A DNA stretch of 64,000 nucleotides. Origin: a virus. The notes beneath the pieces are model-generated. The model saw only the letters and a program-made list of their open reading frames with translations. It made no database searches and was not told the DNA's origin. Shown here in pieces: positions 4,333 through 60,454 of this stretch (positions are counted from its first letter, which is position 1; every line of letters starts with the position of its first letter). The position numbers and the translations under genes are program-made. The DNA lies in the IMG/VR virus record IMGVR_UViG_3300009149_000019, positions 1 to 64,000 of that record. One strand, given 5' to 3'.

Positions 4333-4530
4333 ATGGCGAAGATTATTATAGAGTTTGATGAGAACGGTGACATGACAGCTGATGCCCAGGGTTTCGAGGG
4401 GTCCTCCTGTGAAGAGGCCTTAGACTTCCTGAATGAGATCGGTGTTGTCTCAGAGAAAACCAAGAAAGCTGAATGGTACAAAAAGAACCTGAATAAGGTG
4501 GGGCAGGTAAAGGCGAAGCTTTGTGGATAG
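4333..4530 (+). CDS. DUF2997 family protein
   Basis: IIIEFDENGDM..AQGFEGSSCEEA..KKAEWY pattern; canonical AAA-DUF1257-DUF2997 order. Confidence 0.75.
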   Translation: MAKIIIEFDENGDMTADAQGFEGSSCEEALDFLNEIGVVSEKTKKAEWYKKNLNKVGQVKAKLCG

Positions 4531-5188
4531 CCTGGTACTTGATGTCAGGTGGGAGATAACCAAGAAAAAGCGTGGTAACCTCTGCCAACAGGTAAAGCTT
4601 TTCTTGGTGAGAAAGGATAGGTTATCAGAACAGATGACGGCAGCCTTGAAGTCATTTAGGTTTGATAGCAGCTATAAGTTACCATTTCCTATCTATACGG
4701 GTGTCACTTCCCTTAAGGATGGTCAGTACCTATCTGACCATTGTATGTGTTTTGATATCCTAAGAGTACGACTTAAAAGCAACTGGGCAGCTGTTAATGG
4801 TCAGCACTTAATACTGACAGGCTTGGACTGTAGCCATGACAACTGTAAACACAGCGGTAGGAGCTTTATACCGAGTAGAGACTGTGTAATGTGCTTACCA
4901 TGGTTCTCTGGTGTAAATCCAAAGGAGAACCTTAAGATGGAAGAAGTCTTTTCTAAAGTGAGAGAAGACATTATTGAGGAGTGGGGAATCTACATAGATA
5001 GTTTGGGATTGACAGAGTACGGTCATCTTGGTAGAATGCTTCGGCTGCCAAAAACAAGTACAGAGTCTAAAATAAGGATGCCTGCTTGTTACGGTGACGT
5101 TGATACTTTAGATGAGAACTGCCTTTCTTTATGCACTTTTTTCTATGCGTGCGCAGAAAGGGTTGAGAAGGCTCATCCTGAGCTTTAG
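4523..5188 (+). CDS. hypothetical Cys-rich protein
   Basis: 221-aa ORF with Cys clusters, including C-terminal PACYG-x8-C-x3-C-x5-C. Confidence 0.65.
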   Translation: MDSLVLDVRWEITKKKRGNLCQQVKLFLVRKDRLSEQMTAALKSFRFDSSYKLPFPIYTGVTSLKDGQYLSDHCMCFDILRVRLKSNWAAVNGQHLILTGLDCSHDNCKHSGRSFIPSRDCVMCLPWFSGVNPKENLKMEEVFSKVREDIIEEWGIYIDSLGLTEYGHLGRMLRLPKTSTESKIRMPACYGDVDTLDENCLSLCTFFYACAERVEKAHPEL

Positions 5189-11079: not shown

Positions 11080-11544
11080 ATGAGGAAACTCAGAATAAAT
11101 CCGGACTTTACGCAGGACCCTTCAAAGTTAAAGAAGGCATCCAGACTGTCTCCGGAAGCCCAGGATAAAAAAGAAGAAAAATCCTGGCTAACAAAAATTA
11201 ACAACTATAAACATCAGCTGTTTAGTAGAAGGTTATTTGAGAAGAGTGTTACTCTTGTGCTTAGCCTGCCTGCTAGGCAGCATGCACTTTTCTTGAAAAC
11301 CTGGCCCCTTATGAAGGGTGTTCCTATTGCTATTAGGGCACGTGGCGAAAAGGCCACAGAAGAGGATGTTTTGGGATATTTTCAAGACCTGCAAACTAAC
11401 TATGATGGGAGTTCTGTAGTTAGTGCAGTGTTTAGAATAGACGCCTTTGCTGCGGACTATGAGTACATTCTAGTCCCTGACAAGGGATTAACATCCTTTG
11501 TAGCTATTAGGGCTTATAAAAAAATTAGAAGGGAGCAGGTATGA
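11080..11544 (+). CDS. hypothetical protein
   Basis: AGGAGG SD, 154 aa. Confidence 0.7.
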   Translation: MRKLRINPDFTQDPSKLKKASRLSPEAQDKKEEKSWLTKINNYKHQLFSRRLFEKSVTLVLSLPARQHALFLKTWPLMKGVPIAIRARGEKATEEDVLGYFQDLQTNYDGSSVVSAVFRIDAFAADYEYILVPDKGLTSFVAIRAYKKIRREQV

Positions 11545-12563
11545 AAGTAAAAATATCAATGCCCGAAGATATGAAACAGTATAAGGCGACCTTGGAACGG
11601 GTGTTCAAGTTAGTCTTTACAGAGGAGCGCCTTGATTTCGGAGGCAGGCTCGTCTTTGAAGAGCATGAAAGGGTAGAGAAGGGTATGGAGGATCCAAAAG
11701 GATTCTTCTCATCTCCAGGAAAGTACTCTCCATCTTTCTTCGCATTTATGGAAACATTTCCTGAGGAGACACTCAGGAAGAAAATGAAGAAATGGTCGAA
11801 GGGGCTGAGGGCTCTATCTCTAACGAATGACGCCCAGGTACAAAGTCTTATTGACTTTTATGGATCATTTAGGTCAAGGCTCAATAAAGAGATGGACCTT
11901 CCTGAGAAGGAAGGTGCTATCTATAAGAGCTGGATGCGTGTGATCCGGTTCTACCAGGGAAGTAATCCGGAGCACGTAGTTTATAAGAACTTTGGGATTA
12001 TTAAGGACCTGGTAAATAAAGAAGATAGAAGAACGTATATTCGTGACACAATAGAAGGTAGTGGTGGCACGAGGAATGACTTCCGCCAGGCCGTAATGGC
12101 GACTATCCAGGAAAATGTTAAAAACCTGGAAGTTGAGTTTTGGAAGTTCTTTAAATTGGTAAAGGACTACCATGAAGAACATGGTATTACTGAGGAGCCA
12201 CAGGAAGGCATGTCACTTCTGGGTAGGATGCTTAGGCTCCCTAGTCGACCTGCCTCCACGGAAGGTCTTGTTATTTCTTTTAACTGGATAAATGTAGCCT
12301 TGTATGGGCAAGTACCCACAAAAAAAGAAGTTAACAGAGCTATTGCTCTGATTAGGGCAGAGATGGCTGCCAGAGAAAAGAAGATGGAGAAGGAGAACAA
12401 GAAGGTAAATGATGCGATGCAGCAGTTCGAGACTGCTGTTCGTAAGAAGATAGAAGAACAGCGTGAAGCTGGAGATGCGCCGGATGATGATGAGGATAAG
12501 GATCAGCCTTCTCCGTCTGGTGCAATAGATCCGGCTGGCTTTGACGTGGAAGACGATGAATAG
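11541..12563 (+). CDS. hypothetical protein with an acidic C-terminal tail
   Basis: 340 aa, ATGA coupling. Confidence 0.75.
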   Translation: MKVKISMPEDMKQYKATLERVFKLVFTEERLDFGGRLVFEEHERVEKGMEDPKGFFSSPGKYSPSFFAFMETFPEETLRKKMKKWSKGLRALSLTNDAQVQSLIDFYGSFRSRLNKEMDLPEKEGAIYKSWMRVIRFYQGSNPEHVVYKNFGIIKDLVNKEDRRTYIRDTIEGSGGTRNDFRQAVMATIQENVKNLEVEFWKFFKLVKDYHEEHGITEEPQEGMSLLGRMLRLPSRPASTEGLVISFNWINVALYGQVPTKKEVNRAIALIRAEMAAREKKMEKENKKVNDAMQQFETAVRKKIEEQREAGDAPDDDEDKDQPSPSGAIDPAGFDVEDDE

Positions 12564-13239: not shown

Positions 13240-14098
13240 GATTCAAATGGTAACACACAAGTGTGTCGACTTCGACGCATGTCTGTCTGTGTGGCTCTTG
13301 GAGACATTTGTTTTTAAGGACAGAAAAGTGGAATACAAGTTCTTATCAGCAAATGACGAGCTAGACACAGGCATAGATACTGTCTGTGTAGACATGACAC
13401 CGAAAACAGTTACAGGCCCAGTAACTGTGTACGACCATCATACTACAGGACAGGACTCAAACGCAAGACTCCTTTTTCAGGAGTTTGCACAGTTAATACC
13501 CGAGTCTATACGAGTATTAATTGAGTTTGCTGACCTGTCGGATAAGATGGACGTTGGGACCCTGTTTAAGAAGGCGGACAGGAAGTTCACGTCCCTTACA
13601 TTTGGAGCCTTGCCTGGTATACTGCGTCATTCACGTAAGAGTGACTATGAGGTGCTGATGATTATGTACCCCATATTTGAGGGGTTTCTATACTCAAAAG
13701 AGGCACTCAGCAGGGCTTCTGATTTTATCGAGAAGCGGGTTGTATTCCACAGGGGTGGTACAATTGCTTCCTACAAAATATCGTATAAGGAGGATCAGTA
13801 TAAGGTAAACAGTAGTTTATTTAATGGAAGGAATGTACATGTGGTTATTCTGAAACAGGATAACAACACAGTAATACATGTTAATCAAAATTTTACAACA
13901 ATTGATCTGAGACAACTGAAAGATGTTATTGATGAAGATGACCGGTGGTTCTACCACCATAATGGACACTTAGCATGTTGTGGTTCTAGGAAGAACCCTA
14001 CTAAGTGCCCAACTAAGTATACCGTAGACCAACTGGTCTACTTAGTATCCGAAATTATGGATACACCCATACCCATACCAGAGGAGGACGTAGCGTGA
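13229..14098 (+). CDS. DHH/MYG1-like phosphoesterase
   Basis: VTHxxxDFD, VCVD, YDHH and a later D motif. Confidence 0.6.
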   Translation: MENKIQMVTHKCVDFDACLSVWLLETFVFKDRKVEYKFLSANDELDTGIDTVCVDMTPKTVTGPVTVYDHHTTGQDSNARLLFQEFAQLIPESIRVLIEFADLSDKMDVGTLFKKADRKFTSLTFGALPGILRHSRKSDYEVLMIMYPIFEGFLYSKEALSRASDFIEKRVVFHRGGTIASYKISYKEDQYKVNSSLFNGRNVHVVILKQDNNTVIHVNQNFTTIDLRQLKDVIDEDDRWFYHHNGHLACCGSRKNPTKCPTKYTVDQLVYLVSEIMDTPIPIPEEDVA

Positions 14099-14562
14099 AA
14101 ACAACCATTACCATTGAAAACACCAGTGACCTAGGTATATTGGTCGAAACCTACCTTTCCCTTAAAGGAGAGATTGAGGTTATTGAGGCCAAGGCTAAAA
14201 AGTCTATGGCACCTGCCCAGGCTAAAATAGTTGAGATTCAGAAGACCGCAGTAGCAGCACTAGGTGAGAAGAAGAAAAAACAAGATGAAATTCTTGCTGT
14301 AGTGAAGACCTTCATGATGGCCTCGGAAGAGAAGGCCTTTATGTTTCCTGTTGGGTCCATCACATCTAGGACCAAGAAAGTCTACACAGTTCCCGACAAG
14401 GACATCACCCTTGCCGGGTTAGAAGAGCTTGGTCTCCCTGAATACATCAGGACCAAGAAAGAAATCAAAATGACTGAGATAAAAGAACTTAAGGCAGAGG
14501 TTCTCCAGGACATCGGTGTTGACGTGAAAGATGACCTGGACATATGGATAAAAGCGGCTTGA
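14095..14562 (+). CDS. Mu Gam-like host-nuclease inhibitor
   Basis: N-terminal coiled coil, GSITSR, LGLPEYIRTKKEI, IGVDV. Confidence 0.7.
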   Translation: MKTTITIENTSDLGILVETYLSLKGEIEVIEAKAKKSMAPAQAKIVEIQKTAVAALGEKKKKQDEILAVVKTFMMASEEKAFMFPVGSITSRTKKVYTVPDKDITLAGLEELGLPEYIRTKKEIKMTEIKELKAEVLQDIGVDVKDDLDIWIKAA

Positions 14563-14619: not shown

Positions 14620-15816
14620 ATGGGAGCAAATTTCGATTATAAGGAACTGATAGGGTTCTTGGAGATGTACGCACACGCGAAGTTTGACTATACGCATATT
14701 TGTCCGTATATCGTAGGAGAGTCGGGCATTGGAAAATCCGAAATCATGGAGCAAGTCTTCGTGAAAGCAGGATACACTATGATACAGTGCCAGATTGGCA
14801 CAAAGACTCTGGAATACTTCATGGGACTCCCAGAGATCACAAAATGGCAGGAGGTTGTCCGCGACAAAAATGGAGTCGCAGTGATGCAACCACGACTGGG
14901 CTTAGACGGAAAGCCTGAAAAGACGAAACAGATTGATGAAAAGGGTAACCCTGTTATTGATGAAAAGGGTAACTCAATAATGATACCGGTATTAGAACCA
15001 AAAATGAAAACGATTGCGGAGACTACTTGGACTCCACCGGAGCTTGTTGTGTTGGCTAATCGTGAAGAGAAGGCAGTCATCTTTATCGACGACTTTCATC
15101 TTGCTCGAGAAGAAGAGAGAAAGGTCATGTTTGAGTTGCTGACAACGCACAGCATCCATGGCTTTCGCCTTAATGATTCAGTTAAGGTAGTTATGGCAGC
15201 TAATCCGCAGGATGCGGAATATGGAGCCACTGTAACTGATCTGCCTAAGCCAATAAGGTCCAGGATTGCAGTGTTCAGGCTCAACCATAACGTTGAGCAG
15301 TGGTGTCATGAGTCTCTGGACCGAGGCATCGACAAGAGAATCGTTGCCTTCCTCAGGTTCAACGAGGCGCAGCTTCTGACTGAAGCAGATGATGCTGGTC
15401 AGTATGCATGCCCTAGAAGTTACTGGGGCCTTAGTGATTATCTCAAAGCTGGATTCCCTCTCTCAATGAAGCTGACAACAGGATTCATTGGGGCTGGTGC
15501 GGCTTCTGATCTCATGGGTTTCCATGACGTGTATCAGAAGTTTGAGGATCCGGCGAATCGTCCAAAGAAATGGACCAATCTCGGGAGCGATCATGCTAAG
15601 AAGGCTGCTTTCACCGCATACCTTATGATCAAGGATGACCTTGCTCTCATTAAGAAGTTTGTGGTAGACATGACACATGACAAAGACTCTAGTGCCTTTG
15701 CCATCCTTCTTCTCAAGTCTATCTCATCTAAAAGAGACATTGACGATCCCAGGTGTCTTGAGGTTTTCGACATGGTTGATAATCAGGACATCATTGAGTG
15801 TCTCGGTTACGTCTAA
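14620..15816 (+). CDS. MoxR/AAA_5-type AAA+ ATPase
   Basis: Walker A GESGIGKS, Walker B IFIDDF, MAANP, LPKPIRSR arginine finger, CPRSY. Confidence 0.88.
   Translation: MGANFDYKELIGFLEMYAHAKFDYTHICPYIVGESGIGKSEIMEQVFVKAGYTMIQCQIGTKTLEYFMGLPEITKWQEVVRDKNGVAVMQPRLGLDGKPEKTKQIDEKGNPVIDEKGNSIMIPVLEPKMKTIAETTWTPPELVVLANREEKAVIFIDDFHLAREEERKVMFELLTTHSIHGFRLNDSVKVVMAANPQDAEYGATVTDLPKPIRSRIAVFRLNHNVEQWCHESLDRGIDKRIVAFLRFNEAQLLTEADDAGQYACPRSYWGLSDYLKAGFPLSMKLTTGFIGAGAASDLMGFHDVYQKFEDPANRPKKWTNLGSDHAKKAAFTAYLMIKDDLALIKKFVVDMTHDKDSSAFAILLLKSISSKRDIDDPRCLEVFDMVDNQDIIECLGYV
14932..14973 (+). repeat. short direct repeat ATTGATGAAAAGGGTAAC x2 (IDEKGN) inside the AAA gene
   Basis: Two identical 18-nt copies 24 nt apart. 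Confidence 0.8.
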
Positions 15817-15879: not shown

Positions 15880-16968
15880 ATGATAAAAAGGGTAAAAAGC
15901 CCTGGCTATAATTATGTGTTTGACAGTGAGAAGGGGTTATTTATTCGCTGGGGTAAAACAAAAGATGATGATCCTTTATTCTCTCCAGTTGGGCCGGAGA
16001 TCCTGGATCTTGAGATGTCCACGATCTGCCCTAGAGCCTGTGAGCATTGCTACAAGAGCAATACGAACGAAGGTAAGATGATGACGTTTAGTACGTTTAA
16101 GGATATCTTTCAAAAGTTCCCTAAAACGTTGACCCAGATCGCATTCGGTATCGGATCGTTCAGGGAAGCGAAATCGGAGCTGCTCGCAATGATGGAGTAT
16201 TGCAGAGCTAACAGTTACAACAAAGTAGTTCCAAATGTAACTGTTAACGGAGAAGATCTTACTACTGAAGACTATCAGGCTCTCGCAAAACTATGTGGAG
16301 CAGTGTCCGTGTCCTTTTATGACAAGGACAACTGCTACAGGGCAATAAACGCCCTTACGCAAAATGGGCTGTCACAAGCAAACATCCATATCATCCTTTC
16401 GGAAGAAACGTTACCTCTTTGTTATGAGGTAATGGATGATTTCCATAATGATGCTAGGCTTTCCATGCTCAATGCGATCGTCCTTCTGCTTCTTAAGCCG
16501 AAGGGTAAAAGGAATGTTCTTCACCCTGTACAGGACATGGGAAAGATAAAGGACTTGATTGATTATGCTTTTGAGCATGACGTTCCAATTGGGTTTGATT
16601 CCTGTACGGCTCCAATGTTTCTGAAGTCTGTGGAGCATAGAGAGGACTTTAAGGACCTGTCGATGACAGCAGAGCCTTGTGAGTCCTTTGGCCTCTTTTC
16701 TGCATATGTAAACGTGGATGGAGACTACTTTCCATGTTCTTTTGCTGAAGGTGAAGGAGATTGGAAAGAAGGAATGTCCGTGGTGGATTGCAAGGACTTT
16801 CTTAAGGACATCTGGTATTCGGAAAAGCTGGATGGATGGAGAAAGAAGTCTCTTGCATTGTCATCAGAGTGTGACTGTACCCTGTCTTCTCTCTGCAGGC
16901 CGTGTCCTATCTTTGACATAACTCCATGTCAGAGAGAAAACAGAAGACCAAAGGAGATGGAGGCATAA
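15880..16968 (+). CDS. radical SAM/SPASM domain protein
   Basis: CPRACEHCY; C-terminal PCES..YVNVDGDYFPCSF..C..C..C..CP. Confidence 0.9.
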   Translation: MIKRVKSPGYNYVFDSEKGLFIRWGKTKDDDPLFSPVGPEILDLEMSTICPRACEHCYKSNTNEGKMMTFSTFKDIFQKFPKTLTQIAFGIGSFREAKSELLAMMEYCRANSYNKVVPNVTVNGEDLTTEDYQALAKLCGAVSVSFYDKDNCYRAINALTQNGLSQANIHIILSEETLPLCYEVMDDFHNDARLSMLNAIVLLLLKPKGKRNVLHPVQDMGKIKDLIDYAFEHDVPIGFDSCTAPMFLKSVEHREDFKDLSMTAEPCESFGLFSAYVNVDGDYFPCSFAEGEGDWKEGMSVVDCKDFLKDIWYSEKLDGWRKKSLALSSECDCTLSSLCRPCPIFDITPCQRENRRPKEMEA

Positions 16969-17438
16969 TGAAGATTAGGACAGGATTTGTATCTAATTCA
17001 AGTTCCTCCAGCTTCATACTCTTTTTTAAAAAGGGGCATCCTAAGACAATACATGAGCTTAGGACTCTTCTTTTTGGAGAGGGCGAGACTGTTATTGGGT
17101 CTTCTGGAACAGAGTACAAAGCACAGACTATAGCAAAGACTGTGTTTAAGGATATAAAGAAGGCTAAGCCACTTACGAAGGTAAAGCTTTCTGAGCTACT
17201 GCAAGCGCTGTCTACGAGACATTGTGACCCTAATTATCCAACTGGGGGAAAGTCTTACGCAGAGGTGTTCATAGAAAACATTAAGTTTATGGACGGAGTA
17301 TCGCCTGTGCTAGACATGCTTGAGACACATGACTCGTACAAGCTAGAGTACGAGGACAATGCCTCTCCAATAGAGGCTGACCTGGAACATAGTGGGTTTC
17401 TTGATAATGTTCTGGGCTTTACCTTAAATAATCATTAG
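16968..17438 (+). CDS. MKIRxxFVSNSSSSSF-motif protein
   Basis: TAATG coupling to the radical SAM gene; N-terminus MKIRTGFVSNSSSSSF. Confidence 0.8.
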   Translation: MKIRTGFVSNSSSSSFILFFKKGHPKTIHELRTLLFGEGETVIGSSGTEYKAQTIAKTVFKDIKKAKPLTKVKLSELLQALSTRHCDPNYPTGGKSYAEVFIENIKFMDGVSPVLDMLETHDSYKLEYEDNASPIEADLEHSGFLDNVLGFTLNNH

Positions 17439-17449
17439 AAGGAGATATA

Positions 17450-18949
17450 ATGACAAAACCAGCTTCAGCTTCTGTAAAGGAGAAGGGAAAAGAGAAGCCG
17501 ATGCGCACCTATGAGCAACTGCAAAAGCAGTTCAGGCCTACAATTAACAGCTTAACTGCTGGCCTTATCATCATAGAGCATGTGCTTGGATACTTCCTTG
17601 CGAAGTTCCAGATTCACATTGTTCCGGATGAAAAGGCAGGTGATCGTAGGTTTAGGGGCGCTCCTGGAATGACGGATGGAAGAGACATCTATTTAGTTCC
17701 AGGAAATATGGAAACAACCCCATCCCCTGGAGTTATCCAATTTATTATTGTCCACGAGGTGTACCACCTCTTCCTGAATCATCATGATAGAAGAGGGTAC
17801 AGAGACCCAATCTTGTGGAATCTTGCTGCTGACTGTGAAATACATGAACAGTTCATCAGGCCACATTTAAGGAACACCAATGTATCCTGCCTTCCTGCCG
17901 CTAGAAAGTCTACTGATGACATAGAGCATTATATGGATTCTCTGTGTATATCGGCTAAGTACCTGAAGAAGGCGAATGACACCATAGATCCGGGAGACCC
18001 GGCAGAAATAATCTTCGATAAGCTCAAAAAAGAGCAGGACAAGATTAAGATCGAAATTGTCGGGTTTGGTTCCGGTGACGGTTCCGGTGACGGTGACGGT
18101 GATGGTGACGGTGACGGTGATGGTGACGGTGACGGTGCTCCTAACGGAGGAGGGGGTGATGGTAAAAATGGTACTGTTCGTGTAAAAGTTACAATTAATG
18201 GGGAGAGTAGATACACTCAATACTCTTTGGATGAGCTTCCCCAGGAAGTAAAAGACCAGATCCAGAGAAGTGTTTCCGAAGCCCTTCAATCAGCAAAGAT
18301 GAGGGGATCGGAAAGTGCAGCTATCTTTGAGCGTGTACTTAAGCGTTCACGTGTTGCAAAGAAATGCCTCTCTCTTATCAAGAATTTTGCTAAGCATCTG
18401 GATGCTAAGATGGGATACCTGTGGTCAAGGAGAACCTTCACAAGAAGGAACTTGATTATCAAGAACTTCCCAGGAGTAATGAAGAAAAAGAAAATAATCC
18501 GGACTATGGCTGTTGCCATAGATGAATCTGGGTCTATGAGTGATCAGGAGATAAGTGAGATCATTTATGGTCTTTATGATCTGATCACGAGCAGTCTGGT
18601 CCACATCAGGGAGCTGGTAATTATCCGGCATGATGTGGAAATAAATGTCGAGAGGATCCTTGAGACCTCCAAGCTTGGAAAGTATGTACGGAAGTTTGGA
18701 GGAGGGACTTCTCACCAGAATGTGTTTAAATTCCTTAAAAACGAGGAAGAGGACAAGAAGGAGAAAGCACCTTGTCTTGTCGTATTTATAACTGATGCAT
18801 GCAGTGACATAGAGCACATGCCATGGAATCAGTTGAAAATGGAAAAGCTGTGGCTCATCACAGGAGATACAGACTATGAGGGGAACATGGAGAAACTACC
18901 CGGGATAGGTAGGGTCTTGAACGTTAATAAGACAGAAGCCGGACAGTAA
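17450..18949 (+). CDS. DUF2201-type metallopeptidase plus vWA domain protein
   Basis: TDGR, HEVYH (HExxH), WNLAADCEI; MIDAS DESGS, GGGT, VFITD; Gly-Asp linker. Confidence 0.9.
   Translation: MTKPASASVKEKGKEKPMRTYEQLQKQFRPTINSLTAGLIIIEHVLGYFLAKFQIHIVPDEKAGDRRFRGAPGMTDGRDIYLVPGNMETTPSPGVIQFIIVHEVYHLFLNHHDRRGYRDPILWNLAADCEIHEQFIRPHLRNTNVSCLPAARKSTDDIEHYMDSLCISAKYLKKANDTIDPGDPAEIIFDKLKKEQDKIKIEIVGFGSGDGSGDGDGDGDGDGDGDGDGAPNGGGGDGKNGTVRVKVTINGESRYTQYSLDELPQEVKDQIQRSVSEALQSAKMRGSESAAIFERVLKRSRVAKKCLSLIKNFAKHLDAKMGYLWSRRTFTRRNLIIKNFPGVMKKKKIIRTMAVAIDESGSMSDQEISEIIYGLYDLITSSLVHIRELVIIRHDVEINVERILETSKLGKYVRKFGGGTSHQNVFKFLKNEEEDKKEKAPCLVVFITDACSDIEHMPWNQLKMEKLWLITGDTDYEGNMEKLPGIGRVLNVNKTEAGQ
18073..18137 (+). 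repeat. GGTGAC/GGTGAT hexamer tandem repeat (Gly-Asp linker)
   Basis: About 10 GD units visible. Confidence 0.9.
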
Positions 18950-52641: not shown

Positions 52642-53283
52642 GTGGGTATGTCTAGCTACGAGCGATGTTGCTATGCTGCCCACATAGAGTATGTTCGTAT
52701 TCGATCAAAGAGATCTCCGAAAGGACTAGACAAGTATAGGATGTGGGATAGCAAAAGACACACGTTTTTCGGAGACAAGTGTTGGAAAAACAGAACTAGG
52801 CGTATTAGACAATGGGATATAGATTCAAGTAGAGATAAGCCCCTATGGTTTCTGTATAGACATATAGGAGACTGGTGGTCCCCTGCTCCTATGAGACGGT
52901 GGTCGGAGTTTCTTGAGAAGAATCGTAAGCAAAGTATTCGAAATAAGTTTTGGCCTGAAATTAGAGAGCTAAATCGCTCTTGGAAAAAGATAGAGACAAT
53001 GATGGTGGGGCTGGCTACTACGCTACCAGAGGCTGCTATATTGTTGGAGGAGTTTCTAGACATAGAAGATTCGTTGTTAGTTTTTAATAAAAAGGCGGTA
53101 GACCCTGAGGATGACACAGAGGTATTCAAGGAAGCGTTTAGAAAAATAATTAGGATTTTGATTAAGCTTCCTCCAGCTTACTTTACTAGAGCTGTGTTGT
53201 TTAACGACCTTGGTATACCTGGTTACTTGGTTGGCGAGGTTAACCAAAAGTTGACAGATCAAAGACAACTTGATACTGTTTAA
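52642..53283 (+). CDS. hypothetical protein carrying the shared C-terminal motif
   Basis: 213-aa ORF with a Trp/Arg-rich N-terminal half. Confidence 0.7.
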   Translation: MGMSSYERCCYAAHIEYVRIRSKRSPKGLDKYRMWDSKRHTFFGDKCWKNRTRRIRQWDIDSSRDKPLWFLYRHIGDWWSPAPMRRWSEFLEKNRKQSIRNKFWPEIRELNRSWKKIETMMVGLATTLPEAAILLEEFLDIEDSLLVFNKKAVDPEDDTEVFKEAFRKIIRILIKLPPAYFTRAVLFNDLGIPGYLVGEVNQKLTDQRQLDTV

Positions 53284-53353
53284 TGTAACTACAAATAATT
53301 TACAAGTGAGGCACAGAAAAAGGTCTGTGCCTATTCATAAGGAGGTTTACTTA

Positions 53354-54451
53354 ATGTCAGATTCTTTCATTTCTTATTCTTTTGTCAAAAACAACTATGG
53401 TCCATTTGGAATGGAGCCTTTGGAAGAAAGGACCATTGAGCTGCTTAGGAAACAGCTAGGTAAGGGGTCTTTTCAGTTTGTGAAAAGCGGACTTGTAATT
53501 GTACAGGTTATAGACACGGATCAACTCCTGAGTGTTTTCAGTTCCCTAGGTGACCCCATTATGCTGAGCGGTACAACGTTTCTTATTGTTAAGAAAAATA
53601 AGAGTTGTATTTATTTTAATATTAATCGCTACAGCGATCATGCCAGACTTGAATGGGTGACACACGTCAACAAGCAGGAAGACATGGAAGACGTGTGCAC
53701 AGCGGTATCCAATGTATTAAAAGACCTGGAGATAACACATCATGTCATTGCGGGAGTGAAGTGGTACCACAATACGGTAAAGGGAATAAAGAAAGCCGAG
53801 ATTACAGAGTTTCTTGGTGATACTTTCCATAAAGAGGCCTACCCTTTTCTAGGGGATGTTGATCAGGTCATCTCTGACTACTTAGAGTCATCTGAAAAGG
53901 TGATTGTACTGAAAGGCCCTCCAGGAACGGGTAAGACACGGTTCATCAGACATCTTATGAGAACTATAGGCCTTGCACGTAGGAACTATGTACATGCTTC
54001 ATTTACGAGTGACACTGCGGTTCTTCACAGTGATGAGATGTTTGTTGAGTTCATGGAGTCAGGGGATCAGGTTCTTATCTTGGAAGACATTGATTTTAAT
54101 CTTGCTCCAAGAAAGGATGGTAATACATCCATGTATCACCTCTTGACAATATCAGACAGTATCTTAAGTAATGCACGGTTTAAGGTTGTAGTATCAACAA
54201 ACCTTAGCTGTGTGAAAGATATAGACCCTGCCTTGTTGCGTCCTGGGCGATGCTTTCAGGTCCTTGAATTTCGTGAGCTAACAATTGCAGAAAGCAAGAA
54301 GCTGTTGGCAGCAATGGGAAAGAAGTTACCAAAAGAGGTTCTTAGCAGAAAAAGCCTCTCTTTGGCTGAGATATATAGGATAGCGTCAGGACGTGCTACT
54401 ACTGCCCCTGAGCAGAAAACATTTGGCCTAATGGCCCAACTACCATCTTAG
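53354..54451 (+). CDS. AAA+ ATPase
   Basis: GPPGTGKT, ILEDID, STN, IDPALLRPGRC; ATG 53354 after AAGGAGG. Confidence 0.9.
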   Translation: MSDSFISYSFVKNNYGPFGMEPLEERTIELLRKQLGKGSFQFVKSGLVIVQVIDTDQLLSVFSSLGDPIMLSGTTFLIVKKNKSCIYFNINRYSDHARLEWVTHVNKQEDMEDVCTAVSNVLKDLEITHHVIAGVKWYHNTVKGIKKAEITEFLGDTFHKEAYPFLGDVDQVISDYLESSEKVIVLKGPPGTGKTRFIRHLMRTIGLARRNYVHASFTSDTAVLHSDEMFVEFMESGDQVLILEDIDFNLAPRKDGNTSMYHLLTISDSILSNARFKVVVSTNLSCVKDIDPALLRPGRCFQVLEFRELTIAESKKLLAAMGKKLPKEVLSRKSLSLAEIYRIASGRATTAPEQKTFGLMAQLPS

Positions 54452-54463
54452 GAGGTTTAATCG

Positions 54464-56209
54464 ATGGAGACAAAACGAATGCTGTTTAACCAGCTACTGG
54501 CGAAAGTTCGAGAACTTATATCGGAGGGAGAGGTTGTATCTATGGTGTTTAGGGGTGATACCTTTAGAATCCTGTCTGTTGATAGGAAGTTAGGTAGAAT
54601 AAAGTTCTATGATACCGGGAAAACTCTTCCCCTGAATAAAGATGGAATTTTTATCTGGAAAACTGACAGGTTTCTTGTTCCCATCTCTGGCTCCTTACTT
54701 GGGGATGTCAGGGAATTTGATGTGTGGCCAATCTTTAATGGTTCTCCTGAGTTTGCATGTACTTTGTTTAGGTCTTCTACGGGAACCCATATAGCAGACA
54801 GCATCAAAGTACTAGTAGCATACCTAGTGGAAAGTCTAAAGAGCGCAAATCCGCATCCATCCAGGGTAGTTACGATTGATAAAAAGCTGTATGACGACAA
54901 CTTTGTGTCAATTAAGAGTGCTGCCAAGACGCTCTCTGTTAACGAGGACATTGTTCTGAACGGGGCAGCCGATTGGAAGAAGAAGAAGGAACTGGGTCTT
55001 CCTTTCATTGAAAGGACACAGGGAAATGTACTTCTTTACGATGTGATTGATTATGTTAATACCGTAAAGGTTACTACTGAAGAAGCTAAAGCACTTCCTG
55101 AAAAGGAAGTCGCTACAAGAGTAGATGCGTCCAAAACGTCAATTGGTGCATTCGCATTAGAACAAAAGGAGTCAATAGCAATGAAGAGGATATCAGAAGT
55201 TGTGAAAGAAGTAGGATGCCCGTACCACAAGGTACACGGCATGGTCGCGTCAGGGAAAGTTAAGTGTGCAAGCAAGAAAGTTGTTAAGGGCAGAAATATA
55301 TATTACCTTGACGCTGATGCTGTTGACGCGGTAAAGGCTGAACTTGCTAAGGGGAACAGAAAAGGTGGCCTTAGGCCTGACCCTGAGCTAACGACCTTAA
55401 ATCAGCTGGCCAAAGAGATTAAAATCGACTACTATCATGTCAGGAAAGCAGCCGTCACCTTGGGTGTATGTCCTACAAGGGAAGATACTCAGGGTAAGAG
55501 GACTGTTGCATACTATAATAAGGACACAATAGACATGATTAAAAGTGCCGTTCTCCTCACTACATGGAAACCGAAGACATCTCAGAGTGATGACCCTAGC
55601 CCGCGTCCTACTATGGTCCCCACGATGAAGTATGTGAAACTCCCTTGGCATGGACATAGAAGCCCATCCCCTATCGTAAAAAGCGCACGTAAGTTGGTTG
55701 TTGATATGGGTGAGACCTTTTCGAGCTTTAGCAAAAAGTGTAAACTTTCGGATGTTTGTGTGAGAAGCATTCTTCTCGGAATGAACGCCCCTCAAGAGAA
55801 GACCATAAGAAAAATTGGAATCGGGGTCGCTATTCTCAAAAAGGAAAGAGAATGTTTAGAAAATATGGCGGATACTACTACTCCGCTAAATATGAAGAAG
55901 CCTATCATACAACCCCAGACACCAGATACTCCGGCATATGGTGACACGGTTACAGATCTCCCGAAGCCAATCAGATCCAGAAGTAAGGATCCTATTGCAT
56001 CACAAGAGTATGAGCCAATAGACCTTCAAATTGTGATGTATGGTGTCGTTGGCGGAGTCAGTGCGTGTTCTGCTATCATCGATGAAAAAATCGCAGTGCT
56101 GACAAATACACTGAAGGCATCACCAAACAAAGAGAACCTTTCAAAAGCAATTGAGTCTTTTAGGAGGGATATTCGTAAGATAGTGGAGAATCTTAATAAG
56201 TTAGTTTAA
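54464..56209 (+). CDS. multi-domain protein with several HTH-like segments
   Basis: SIKSAAKTLSV, RISEVVKEVGCPY, TLNQLAKEIKIDY, FSSFSKKCKLSDVCVRSILLG. Confidence 0.6.
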   Translation: METKRMLFNQLLAKVRELISEGEVVSMVFRGDTFRILSVDRKLGRIKFYDTGKTLPLNKDGIFIWKTDRFLVPISGSLLGDVREFDVWPIFNGSPEFACTLFRSSTGTHIADSIKVLVAYLVESLKSANPHPSRVVTIDKKLYDDNFVSIKSAAKTLSVNEDIVLNGAADWKKKKELGLPFIERTQGNVLLYDVIDYVNTVKVTTEEAKALPEKEVATRVDASKTSIGAFALEQKESIAMKRISEVVKEVGCPYHKVHGMVASGKVKCASKKVVKGRNIYYLDADAVDAVKAELAKGNRKGGLRPDPELTTLNQLAKEIKIDYYHVRKAAVTLGVCPTREDTQGKRTVAYYNKDTIDMIKSAVLLTTWKPKTSQSDDPSPRPTMVPTMKYVKLPWHGHRSPSPIVKSARKLVVDMGETFSSFSKKCKLSDVCVRSILLGMNAPQEKTIRKIGIGVAILKKERECLENMADTTTPLNMKKPIIQPQTPDTPAYGDTVTDLPKPIRSRSKDPIASQEYEPIDLQIVMYGVVGGVSACSAIIDEKIAVLTNTLKASPNKENLSKAIESFRRDIRKIVENLNKLV

Positions 56210-56215
56210 TGGAAT

Positions 56216-56250
56216 AGGGCTCCTTGGTATATAACTGAGGAGCCCTTTTT
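56216..56250 (+). terminator. terminator-like hairpin with a TATATAA loop
   Basis: AGGGCTCCTTGG-TATATAA-CTGAGGAGCCCT-TTTT. Confidence 0.75.
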
Positions 56251-56260
56251 AGGAGAAAAC

Positions 56261-56986
56261 ATGAAAGCGATTTATTTTACTCGTGGGAGGGCAAAAGAAT
56301 ACTGTGAGTGCGCCATTAACATCTATACTGGTTGTGATCATGGCTGCACGTATTGCTATGGTGCGTCCGTCCTTCATATGACACGAGAAAAGTTTGCTAA
56401 CCCTGTTACCAGGAATAATCTTATAAACAGTATAAAAAAAGAAGCTCCTGCATTTAAGGGCAAGGAGGTTCAGTTATGCTTTGTCACGGATCCCTATCAG
56501 GTATTTGATCAGGAGGTTAGACTGACAAGGGAAGTTATTGAGGTTCTCCATGAAAGTGGAGTTAAGGTATCTATTTTGACAAAAGGTGGGAACAGAAGTC
56601 TGGTTGACTTCGATCTCTTTGAGAAGAATCCATCTTTATCTAAATATGGAACTACCCTGACCTTTCTGGATGAAGCTAAATCATTGGAATGGGAACCAGG
56701 GGCAGCACCTCCTGAGGAACGCATAAACGCCCTTCAGAAGGCAAAAGAGATCGGAGTGGAGACTTGGGTCAGTCTGGAGCCAGTTCTCGATCCACAGGCT
56801 GTATACTCAATAATAGAGAGAACACACACCTTCGTGGATATGTTCAAGGTAGGAACCTGGAATTATCATGAGGACGCCAAGAAGATTGACTGGAAACTTT
56901 TTGGTACAACTGCTAAAGAACTAATGGATCATTTGGGATGTAACTACTATCTCAAAAATGATCTGGTAGAGAAGATGAACGGTTAA
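56261..56986 (+). CDS. radical SAM protein (SPL/Rv2578c-like)
   Basis: NIYTGCDHGCTYCY, TDPYQ, ILTK, WEPGA..PEERI, SLEP. Confidence 0.88.
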   Translation: MKAIYFTRGRAKEYCECAINIYTGCDHGCTYCYGASVLHMTREKFANPVTRNNLINSIKKEAPAFKGKEVQLCFVTDPYQVFDQEVRLTREVIEVLHESGVKVSILTKGGNRSLVDFDLFEKNPSLSKYGTTLTFLDEAKSLEWEPGAAPPEERINALQKAKEIGVETWVSLEPVLDPQAVYSIIERTHTFVDMFKVGTWNYHEDAKKIDWKLFGTTAKELMDHLGCNYYLKNDLVEKMNG

Positions 56987-57006
56987 ATAAGTGAAGTTAC
57001 TTTATA

Positions 57007-59593: not shown

Positions 59594-60454
59594 ATGGAAA
59601 CATTTGCAACTGGATGGCTACCTGATTTTCCTGATATCAGAGATTACACAATGGACACTGAAGAGGTTAAACCAATTTTTGCGGCTGTCTGTAAGAATGG
59701 AACTACCCCACAGTCTACTGTTGACTTGAGGGAATGGTTCTCTCCGGTAGAAAATCAAGGAAGTATTGGTTCGTGTACTGCACATGCAGCAATCGGTCTT
59801 CTTGAGTACTGTGAGAGACGGGCTTTTGGAAAACATGTTGATGCCTCACGGCTGTTCACCTATAAAGTGACCAGAAAACTGATGGGAGTTACAGGAGACA
59901 CAGGTGCATTCTTGAGAACTGTTATGGGCGCTTTAACTATGTTTGGTGCTCCTCCAGAAAAGTTTTATCCCTATGTTGAGGCTAAGTATGATGATGAGCC
60001 TGATCAATTTGTGTATGCGTTAGCCCGTAATTACCAGGCTACCAAGTATGTCAGATTGGATCCTCCAGGCTCAACAAGAGCACAACTAATGGAAGGGATT
60101 AAAGCTAATCTCTGTAATGGCCTTCCTTCAATGTTCGGTTTCTCCGTGTACAGATCCTTGTACAATCCAGATGTCTCTAAGAGTGGCAAGATCCCATATC
60201 CTGCAAAGGGAGAAAAGGGGGATGGTGGCCATGCTATCGTATGCTGCGGGTATATTGATGACATGGAGATCATCAATCCTTACGATATGCATAAAACTAA
60301 GGGCGCCTTCATCATAAGGAATTCTTGGGGAACTGGCTGGGGTAATCAAGGATACGGATTCCTTCCCTATGAGTATGTTGAGAAAGGTATTGCTATTGAC
60401 TGGTGGACGCTTATTAATGCAGAATGGGTGGATACTAACCAGTTCGGCGTTTAG
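59594..60454 (+). CDS. papain-like C1A cysteine protease (xylellain-like)
   Basis: GWLPD.PD.RD, VDLR, NQGSIGSC (catalytic Cys), GGHA, IRNSWG. Confidence 0.95.
   Translation: METFATGWLPDFPDIRDYTMDTEEVKPIFAAVCKNGTTPQSTVDLREWFSPVENQGSIGSCTAHAAIGLLEYCERRAFGKHVDASRLFTYKVTRKLMGVTGDTGAFLRTVMGALTMFGAPPEKFYPYVEAKYDDEPDQFVYALARNYQATKYVRLDPPGSTRAQLMEGIKANLCNGLPSMFGFSVYRSLYNPDVSKSGKIPYPAKGEKGDGGHAIVCCGYIDDMEIINPYDMHKTKGAFIIRNSWGTGWGNQGYGFLPYEYVEKGIAIDWWTLINAEWVDTNQFGV

Follow-up and report, generated by a model that had tools for sequence, protein, structure and literature searches.

A 15-residue peptide of a MoxR-like AAA+ ATPase was found almost unchanged inside an otherwise unrelated protein of the same phage genome. 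The observation, made in the window (the whole 64,000-nt stretch of viral DNA analysed here), is solid and unusual. The copy lies at 55937-55981 on the plus strand and is translated as YGDTVTDLPKPIRSR, residues 492-506 of the 581-aa ORF 54464-56209. The original lies at 15220-15264, also on the plus strand, and is translated as YGATVTDLPKPIRSR, residues 201-215 of the 398-aa AAA ORF 14620-15816. The two peptides are identical at 14 of 15 residues, the sole change being A to D. At the DNA level 10 of the 45 bases differ, of which nine are synonymous and one is non-synonymous. An earlier note on this DNA had given the same positions, identity and codon count; both stretches translate as it claimed, and a recount of the 45 nt agrees. 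We tentatively favour the explanation that the copy is a selected linear motif imitating a loop of the ATPase, and the insertion of a functionless gene fragment is its serious rival.

The shared peptide and its statistical support

Pairwise BLASTP between ORF 54464 and AAA 14620 returned the match with an E value of 8e-7. When all 105 ORFs of the 84-kb genome were compared against each other, the peptide pair was recovered at E = 4e-5. ORF 54464 and the AAA protein have an exact 12-mer in common, and shuffled proteomes gave a mean of 0.045 shared 8-mers. Chance is excluded as the source of the match. The third codon positions of the two stretches are identical at 6 of 15 sites, which is near saturation. 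No third copy of the peptide was found in the 84,002-nt genome, so the number of copies is two.

The copy was also present in an independent assembly. In run X2, which belongs to a different study, a contig of 1011 nt covers 55012-56022, copy included, with 0 differences. Because this contig spans the copy unchanged, an assembly chimera or artefact is ruled out. The reads and contigs of four other runs showed 0 differences in ORF 54464; among these, X2 spans the copy, X4 part of that bin, and X3 and X5 lie elsewhere in the ORF. The source sample is a subsurface metagenome, and over 53200-57000 the same phage was observed in soil and aquatic metagenomes of four other studies with 0-2 differences per contig.

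The genome contig is 84,002 nt long, and all but three of its 105 called ORFs (102) share one strand. Genes for a two-subunit RNA polymerase, a topoisomerase II and a DNA polymerase are present. This gene content indicates a large phage or part of one. Some other short modules were noticed in this genome. The N-terminal leader M-K-I-R-x-G-F-V-S-N-S-S-S-S-S-F is found in ORF 16926 (16926-17438; residues 15-34) and in five tandem ORFs, 74529, 74920, 75354, 75698 and 76384, which span 74529-76713, beyond the window. The leader proteins share up to 94% identity over 18 residues and are otherwise different, so this is a second module common to unrelated proteins. ORFs 4523-5188 and 11541-12563 contain the exact 8-mer LGRMLRLP within a 98-residue alignment of 34% identity and are probably distant paralogues, judged by this alignment. 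A papain-family (C1) cysteine protease gene is located at 59594-60454 among ankyrin-repeat genes.

The MoxR-like ATPase and its expected vWA partner

The protein that bears the original segment, encoded at 14620-15816 on the plus strand, was assigned by motifs, PHROG match and fold to the MoxR-like AAA+ ATPases (AAA_5 / clade 7). Its Walker A (GESGIGKS, residues 33-40) and Walker B (IFIDDF, residues 153-158) are invariant in the family alignment, as are sensor-1 N195 and the prolines P209 and P211. Alignment of R215 with the R of N-R-F, both in distant homologues and in midasin, points to the arginine finger. The Pfam AAA_5 match scores 20.9 bits, under the cut-off of 22, and ends at residue 215; PHROG 1297, annotated as 'ATPase', is matched at 4e-36. 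The AF2 model has a pLDDT of 85.8, and its top Foldseek matches are NorQ (9qh4, E = 1.3e-8) and CbbQ2 (6l1q). The MoxR type proposed earlier is thus borne out by Walker A and B, N195, R215 and the closest solved folds, with the AAA_5 score remaining subthreshold. The AAA protein P0029, encoded on a 2.6-kb contig, is 97% identical.

In the AF2 model, the shared segment begins in a surface loop that follows beta-4 and is modelled with the lowest confidence (residues 199-202, pLDDT below 50), and it continues into a four-residue helix, 210-213. The segment at 15220-15264 accordingly takes in the flexible loop after sensor-1 N195 and the short helix, and ends with the arginine finger R215. It had been described before as the arginine-finger segment, a description that holds for its end and is incomplete for the rest, which comprises the post-sensor-1 loop as well. 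Alignment and model together identify the copied stretch as a surface element of the MoxR-like ATPase that is flexible and made up of the post-sensor-1 loop and the short arginine-finger helix.

A DUF2201 metallopeptidase and vWA-like protein is encoded at 17450-18949 on the plus strand (DUF2201_N, 4e-12; DUF2201 vWA-like, 23.5 bits, below the cut-off of 26.4). ORF 17450 is the expected partner of the MoxR-like ATPase and a candidate target of the copied peptide. On the related contig L001, its homologue directly adjoins the AAA gene.

Several features of this gene neighborhood were recorded in passing. Relative to all homologues, the ATPase has an insertion of about 55 residues at residues ~75-135 (14830-15020), predicted to form beta-hairpins and located where MoxR proteins carry the helix-2 insert; in NorQ, the helix-2 insert grips the vWA 'finger'. 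In ORF 17450, the metallopeptidase half is linked to the vWA half by a Gly-Asp / Gly-Ser-Gly-Asp dipeptide repeat at residues ~205-230 (18050-18130). Cultured relatives of the ATPase are found in N4-like phages, and a gene for a Mu Gam-like protein (14095-14562) is located directly upstream of the ATPase gene.

The orphan protein that carries the copy

ORF 54464 (54464-56209, plus strand) is an orphan of 581 aa. It consists of three MerR/HTH_17-like repeat segments, a linker, a hydrophobic stretch and long C-terminal helices. An AGGAGG ribosome-binding site lies 7 nt upstream of its ATG, which indicates that ORF 54464 is a real gene. The MerR_1 match (E = 0.0075) scores 16.8 bits, below the cut-off of 21.6, and the HTH_17 match has an E value of 0.13. 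The three repeat-like segments align mutually, and the Atlas leads have scores of 0.78-0.83, all below 0.85. The profile of the three HTH-like repeats gave no HTH match in the PDB. Calling the protein HTH-rich, as had been done before, finds weak backing in the subthreshold MerR_1 match, the three repeat-like segments and the Atlas leads, and none in the PDB comparison. ORF 54464 is presumed, from these sequence features, to be a DNA-binding protein.

The copy is held in a Pro/Thr/Asp-rich linker, residues 468-520 (55865-56023, plus strand), with 9 Pro in 53 residues. The linker is presumed from its composition to be disordered. In the AF2 model of ORF 54464 alone it appears as coil, in a low-confidence model whose pLDDT of 35 makes it unreliable.

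Homologues of the carrier were searched for at different scales. In a word-index search of 5.8 billion proteins, only ORF 54464 itself and a one-residue variant were found, and the variant comes from a second assembly of the same phage. An exhaustive HMMER search of 1.84 billion representative proteins gave no homologue, the one match, to repeat protein P0027, being spurious. Region 476-520 had three word-sharing candidates, among which only ORF 54464 itself passed. Neither tblastn against phage GenBank nor the IMG/VR search gave a match. No AAA domain was detected in ORF 54464, with 0 AAA matches in Pfam, PHROG or NCBIfam. No Walker A or Walker B was present at the expected distance from the shared segment, and hhalign of the AAA family profile against residues 373-581 aligned 19 columns only.

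The gene directly before ORF 54464 encodes another AAA ATPase, of the classic clade (PF00004; 53270-54451, plus strand), which is unrelated to the copied segment. It ends 13 nt before ORF 54464. No terminator-like site was found in the 13-nt gap, and the two genes are probably co-transcribed. The closest cultured relatives of this ATPase are in phiKZ-like jumbo phages (Phabio; Klebsiella and Serratia jumbo phages). No positional analogue of ORF 54464 was found beside the Phabio homologue.

Origin and age of the copy

The peptide segment is identical in P0003, an AAA protein with 48% identity overall that is encoded on a 60.5-kb contig, and nearly identical in three further homologues. On this residue-level agreement, the AAA family is established as the source of the ORF 54464 peptide, by common descent.

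The resident gene was then compared with the copy at the DNA level. When 10 random base changes were simulated, at most one residue change resulted in 2-6e-5 of runs. Neutral drift from a copy of the resident AAA gene is excluded (p ~2-6e-5). This agrees with the earlier view that no recent DNA duplication of the resident gene gave rise to the copy, given 10 of 45 bases changed and nine of the changes synonymous. Over the 45 nt, the copy differs from the resident AAA gene at 10 positions and from the L001 AAA gene at 11, and the resident and L001 genes differ from each other at 11. The three sequences are equidistant in DNA, which indicates that the copy is about as old as the split between AAA proteins that are 48% identical. 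Judged by codons and residues together, the divergence of the copy is old, and it took place under constraint at the peptide level.

A closer donor was sought with a degenerate DNA pattern for T-[DE]-L-P-K-P-I-R-S-R in IMG/VR, metagenome contigs and GTDB genomes. IMG/VR gave 0 matches. The metagenome contigs gave the L001 AAA gene only, plus out-of-frame or chance matches, and the GTDB genomes gave chance matches only, in high-GC DNA. The single other phage found to have the peptide differs from the copy at 11 of 45 bases, as distant as the resident gene. A closer donor gene was thus not found in IMG/VR, the metagenome contigs, the GTDB genomes or the protein database. The earlier note had held that an AAA gene of another phage matching the 45 nt almost exactly, together with homologues of ORF 54464 lacking the peptide, would speak for a neutral recent insertion; such an AAA gene was absent from the collections searched. 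The phage clade is barely sampled, with two AAA lineages with the exact motif known.

A probably decayed upstream flank and probable selection on the core

The 17 codons directly upstream of the copy (55886-55936, plus strand) have same-register similarity to the beta-4/sensor-1 stretch of the AAA protein. The BLASTP alignment of ORF 54464 and the AAA protein continues ungapped through these 17 residues, 3 of which are identical. The BLOSUM62 score of this 17-mer is +12, whereas the background, calculated from every 17-mer pair between the two proteins, is -15.8 +/- 8.6 (p = 0.0024). Tested in the same register against the other four AAA homologues, the flank gave p = 0.008-0.012. The p values for the five close AAA homologues in the test therefore range over 0.002-0.012, meaning that 0.2-1.2% of background pairs score as well. 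The downstream flank scores at background against the AAA protein. In DNA, the upstream flank is identical at 17 of 51 positions (p = 0.19), which is not above background, and the DNA flanks of the copy and the AAA gene have background identity on both sides.

Within the AAA genes, the upstream stretch is conserved like the core, with 12 of 17 residues identical between the window and L001. Between ORF 54464 and the AAA protein, 14 of 17 residues are changed upstream vs 1 of 15 in the core (Fisher p = 2e-5). Judged by this protein-level similarity, the 17 upstream codons probably belonged to a longer captured fragment and have since decayed. If the flank homology is real, the unconstrained half of the fragment has had the time to decay within ORF 54464. 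Such an old residence with a decayed flank would mean that the core was held by selection within ORF 54464. The flank similarity is modest and is seen in a single gene. Were it due to chance, all of the data would be explained without selection by a short patch recently acquired from an unsampled relative. On balance, selection acting in ORF 54464 itself appears rather probable from these sequence comparisons. The earlier note had left two options, a selected mimic or a captured fragment; the probably decayed flank tilts the choice somewhat towards selection on the core.

Proposed explanation

In the proposed explanation, a fragment of at least about 32 codons of a MoxR-like AAA gene would have entered the ancestor of ORF 54464 long ago. 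The beta-4/sensor-1 half, being useless outside the ATPase fold, would have drifted into Pro/Thr-rich linker. The loop/arginine-finger half would have been kept almost unchanged by purifying selection. Since 14 of 15 residues were kept in a peptide freed of its fold, the simplest reading is that the same ligand as the original is recognized. The kept core would then be a short linear motif that imitates a surface element of the phage's own ATPase.

The most likely target would be the docking site for the ATPase's own post-sensor-1 loop on the vWA-metallopeptidase ORF 17450. An alternative target would be the interface at the nucleotide site of an ATPase subunit, the place of action of the neighboring subunit's arginine finger. 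The peptide may serve as a tether between a DNA-bound protein and either the vWA-peptidase or the ATPase, or may compete with ring assembly or partner docking. The outcome would be the coupling of a presumed DNA-binding protein to the MoxR-vWA machine. Both the binding by the copied peptide and the choice of its target are inferred, the vWA domain being put first by analogy with NorQD. Co-folding of the ATPase, ATP and Mg with ORF 54464 residues 470-530 gave a score of 0.00, which is uninformative about binding.

We favour, mechanism included, a selected linear motif in imitation of the ATPase loop, with the confidence of a leading candidate and no higher. A more specific form of it, in which the copy is a selected decoy that plugs into the vWA-metallopeptidase or the ATPase ring as a peptide-level switch or tether, and thus represents self-mimicry in one viral genome, is possible and is put forward with more caution.

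Alternative explanations

The serious rival is a neutral mosaic relic, which we consider somewhat unlikely. Some 45-50 nt of AAA gene sequence, derived from an unsampled and diverged relative, would have been inserted recently and in-frame, and would be functionless in ORF 54464. The synonymous differences would date from before the insertion, when the stretch belonged to the ATPase gene of the donor, and the recipient would be a fast-evolving orphan gene with a tolerant linker. No part of the AAA family is more conserved than this segment, which is identical even in P0003, so one would expect a donor that encodes the same peptide by different codons. The background identity of the DNA flanks on both sides and the 19 columns aligned by hhalign fit a short patch. 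ORF 54464 is an orphan in a poorly sampled clade, and only in-frame patches of conserved motifs would get noticed. However, no donor was found in any collection searched, and two breakpoints about 45 nt apart are required. A recent short patch does not predict that the upstream 17 residues keep register with the five AAA homologues, and a recent longer patch would have retained the conserved K-V-x-x-A-A-N-P stretch.

In a further alternative, which is improbable, the peptide is a recognition site that the same third factor reads in both proteins, with no MoxR-vWA docking. Candidates for this factor are a phage or host protease, a modifying enzyme, e.g. a radical SAM protein, or a host protein. 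Constraint at the peptide level is in line with it, as are the other short peptide modules common to unrelated proteins in this genome. A radical SAM gene also lies directly 3' of both peptide-bearing genes, namely 15880-16968 with a SPASM domain after the ATPase gene and the PA0069/Rv2578c/SPL-like 56261-56986 after ORF 54464. However, the two radical SAM proteins are unrelated, having no match in the all-against-all comparison, and 56261-56986 resembles DNA-repair-type enzymes. L001 encodes the identical peptide although its AAA gene directly adjoins the vWA gene, without an intervening radical SAM gene. Conservation of the segment in the ATPase is already accounted for by what it does throughout the family, from sensor 1 to the arginine finger. 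The two radical SAM genes are probably a coincidence. It is very improbable that the C-terminal part of ORF 54464 is a degenerate ATPase in which only the best-conserved motif is recognizable: the weak similarity in the 17 upstream residues would suit such a remnant, but the AAA profile aligns with residues 373-581 over 19 columns only, there is no Walker A or B at the distance where it should lie, the downstream flank scores no higher than background, and the region is Pro-rich and not predicted to fold.

Relation to known systems

Subunit D of Mg-chelatase (ChlD/BchD) consists of a degenerate AAA-like module, a Pro-rich acidic linker and a vWA domain. In it, as would be the case for the favoured selected motif, the partner of a MoxR-related ring uses ATPase-derived sequence with a Pro-rich linker to join the ring. 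The difference is that subunit D has a whole AAA-like domain in the vWA protein, whereas here 15 residues are found in an unrelated third protein.

The closest structural precedent is the contact of the NorQ post-sensor-1 loop with NorD. In NorQD cryo-EM structures, the post-sensor-1 loop lines the pore exit and binds the NorD C-terminus and a hydrophobic pocket (PMC13036017; PDB 9qh4, 9qh6, 9qhd). NorQ is the best structural match of the ATPase in the window, and in both cases a gene for a vWA-type partner is nearby. NorQ has a defined contact for its vWA partner in the loop that leads from sensor 1 to the arginine finger, and the copy in the window is that stretch. However, the NorQ loop acts within a folded hexamer, while the copy is free-standing in another protein; the partner in the window is a DUF2201 metallopeptidase-vWA protein and not NorD, and the identity to NorQ is 12-13%.

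The closest functional analogy to the proposed mechanism is that of the ParB and ParG peptides. Flexible arginine-bearing N-terminal peptides of ParB and ParG activate ParA-type ATPases, as summarized in PMC12462528 (refs 65-66 therein). The same 2025 study argued that the arginine of the ParB peptide is not a true arginine finger (PMC12462528). Similarly to what is proposed here, a short flexible arginine-bearing peptide of a DNA-binding protein acts on a P-loop ATPase. The ATPases concerned are of the ParA/MinD type and not AAA+, and the ParB peptide is no copy of an ATPase segment.

Phage mosaicism also places gene fragments in-frame inside unrelated lineage-specific genes, via illegitimate recombination. 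The piece in the window differs from such fragments in being very short, in being saturated at synonymous sites yet identical at 14 of 15 residues, and in having a flank that looks decayed. A literature search on short-linear-motif mimicry together with phages and AAA+ proteins found no precedent.

Significance

If the copy is a neutral relic, it would be a clean example of how orphan phage genes gain in-frame scraps of other genes. It would also show that a high-identity peptide with saturated synonymous sites is by itself no proof of function. MoxR-vWA pairs occur widely, both in bacteria and in phages such as the N4-like ones. If the copy is selected, it would provide a natural peptide probe for the MoxR-vWA interface. 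It would also be a rare case in which a virus mimics its own protein instead of a host protein.
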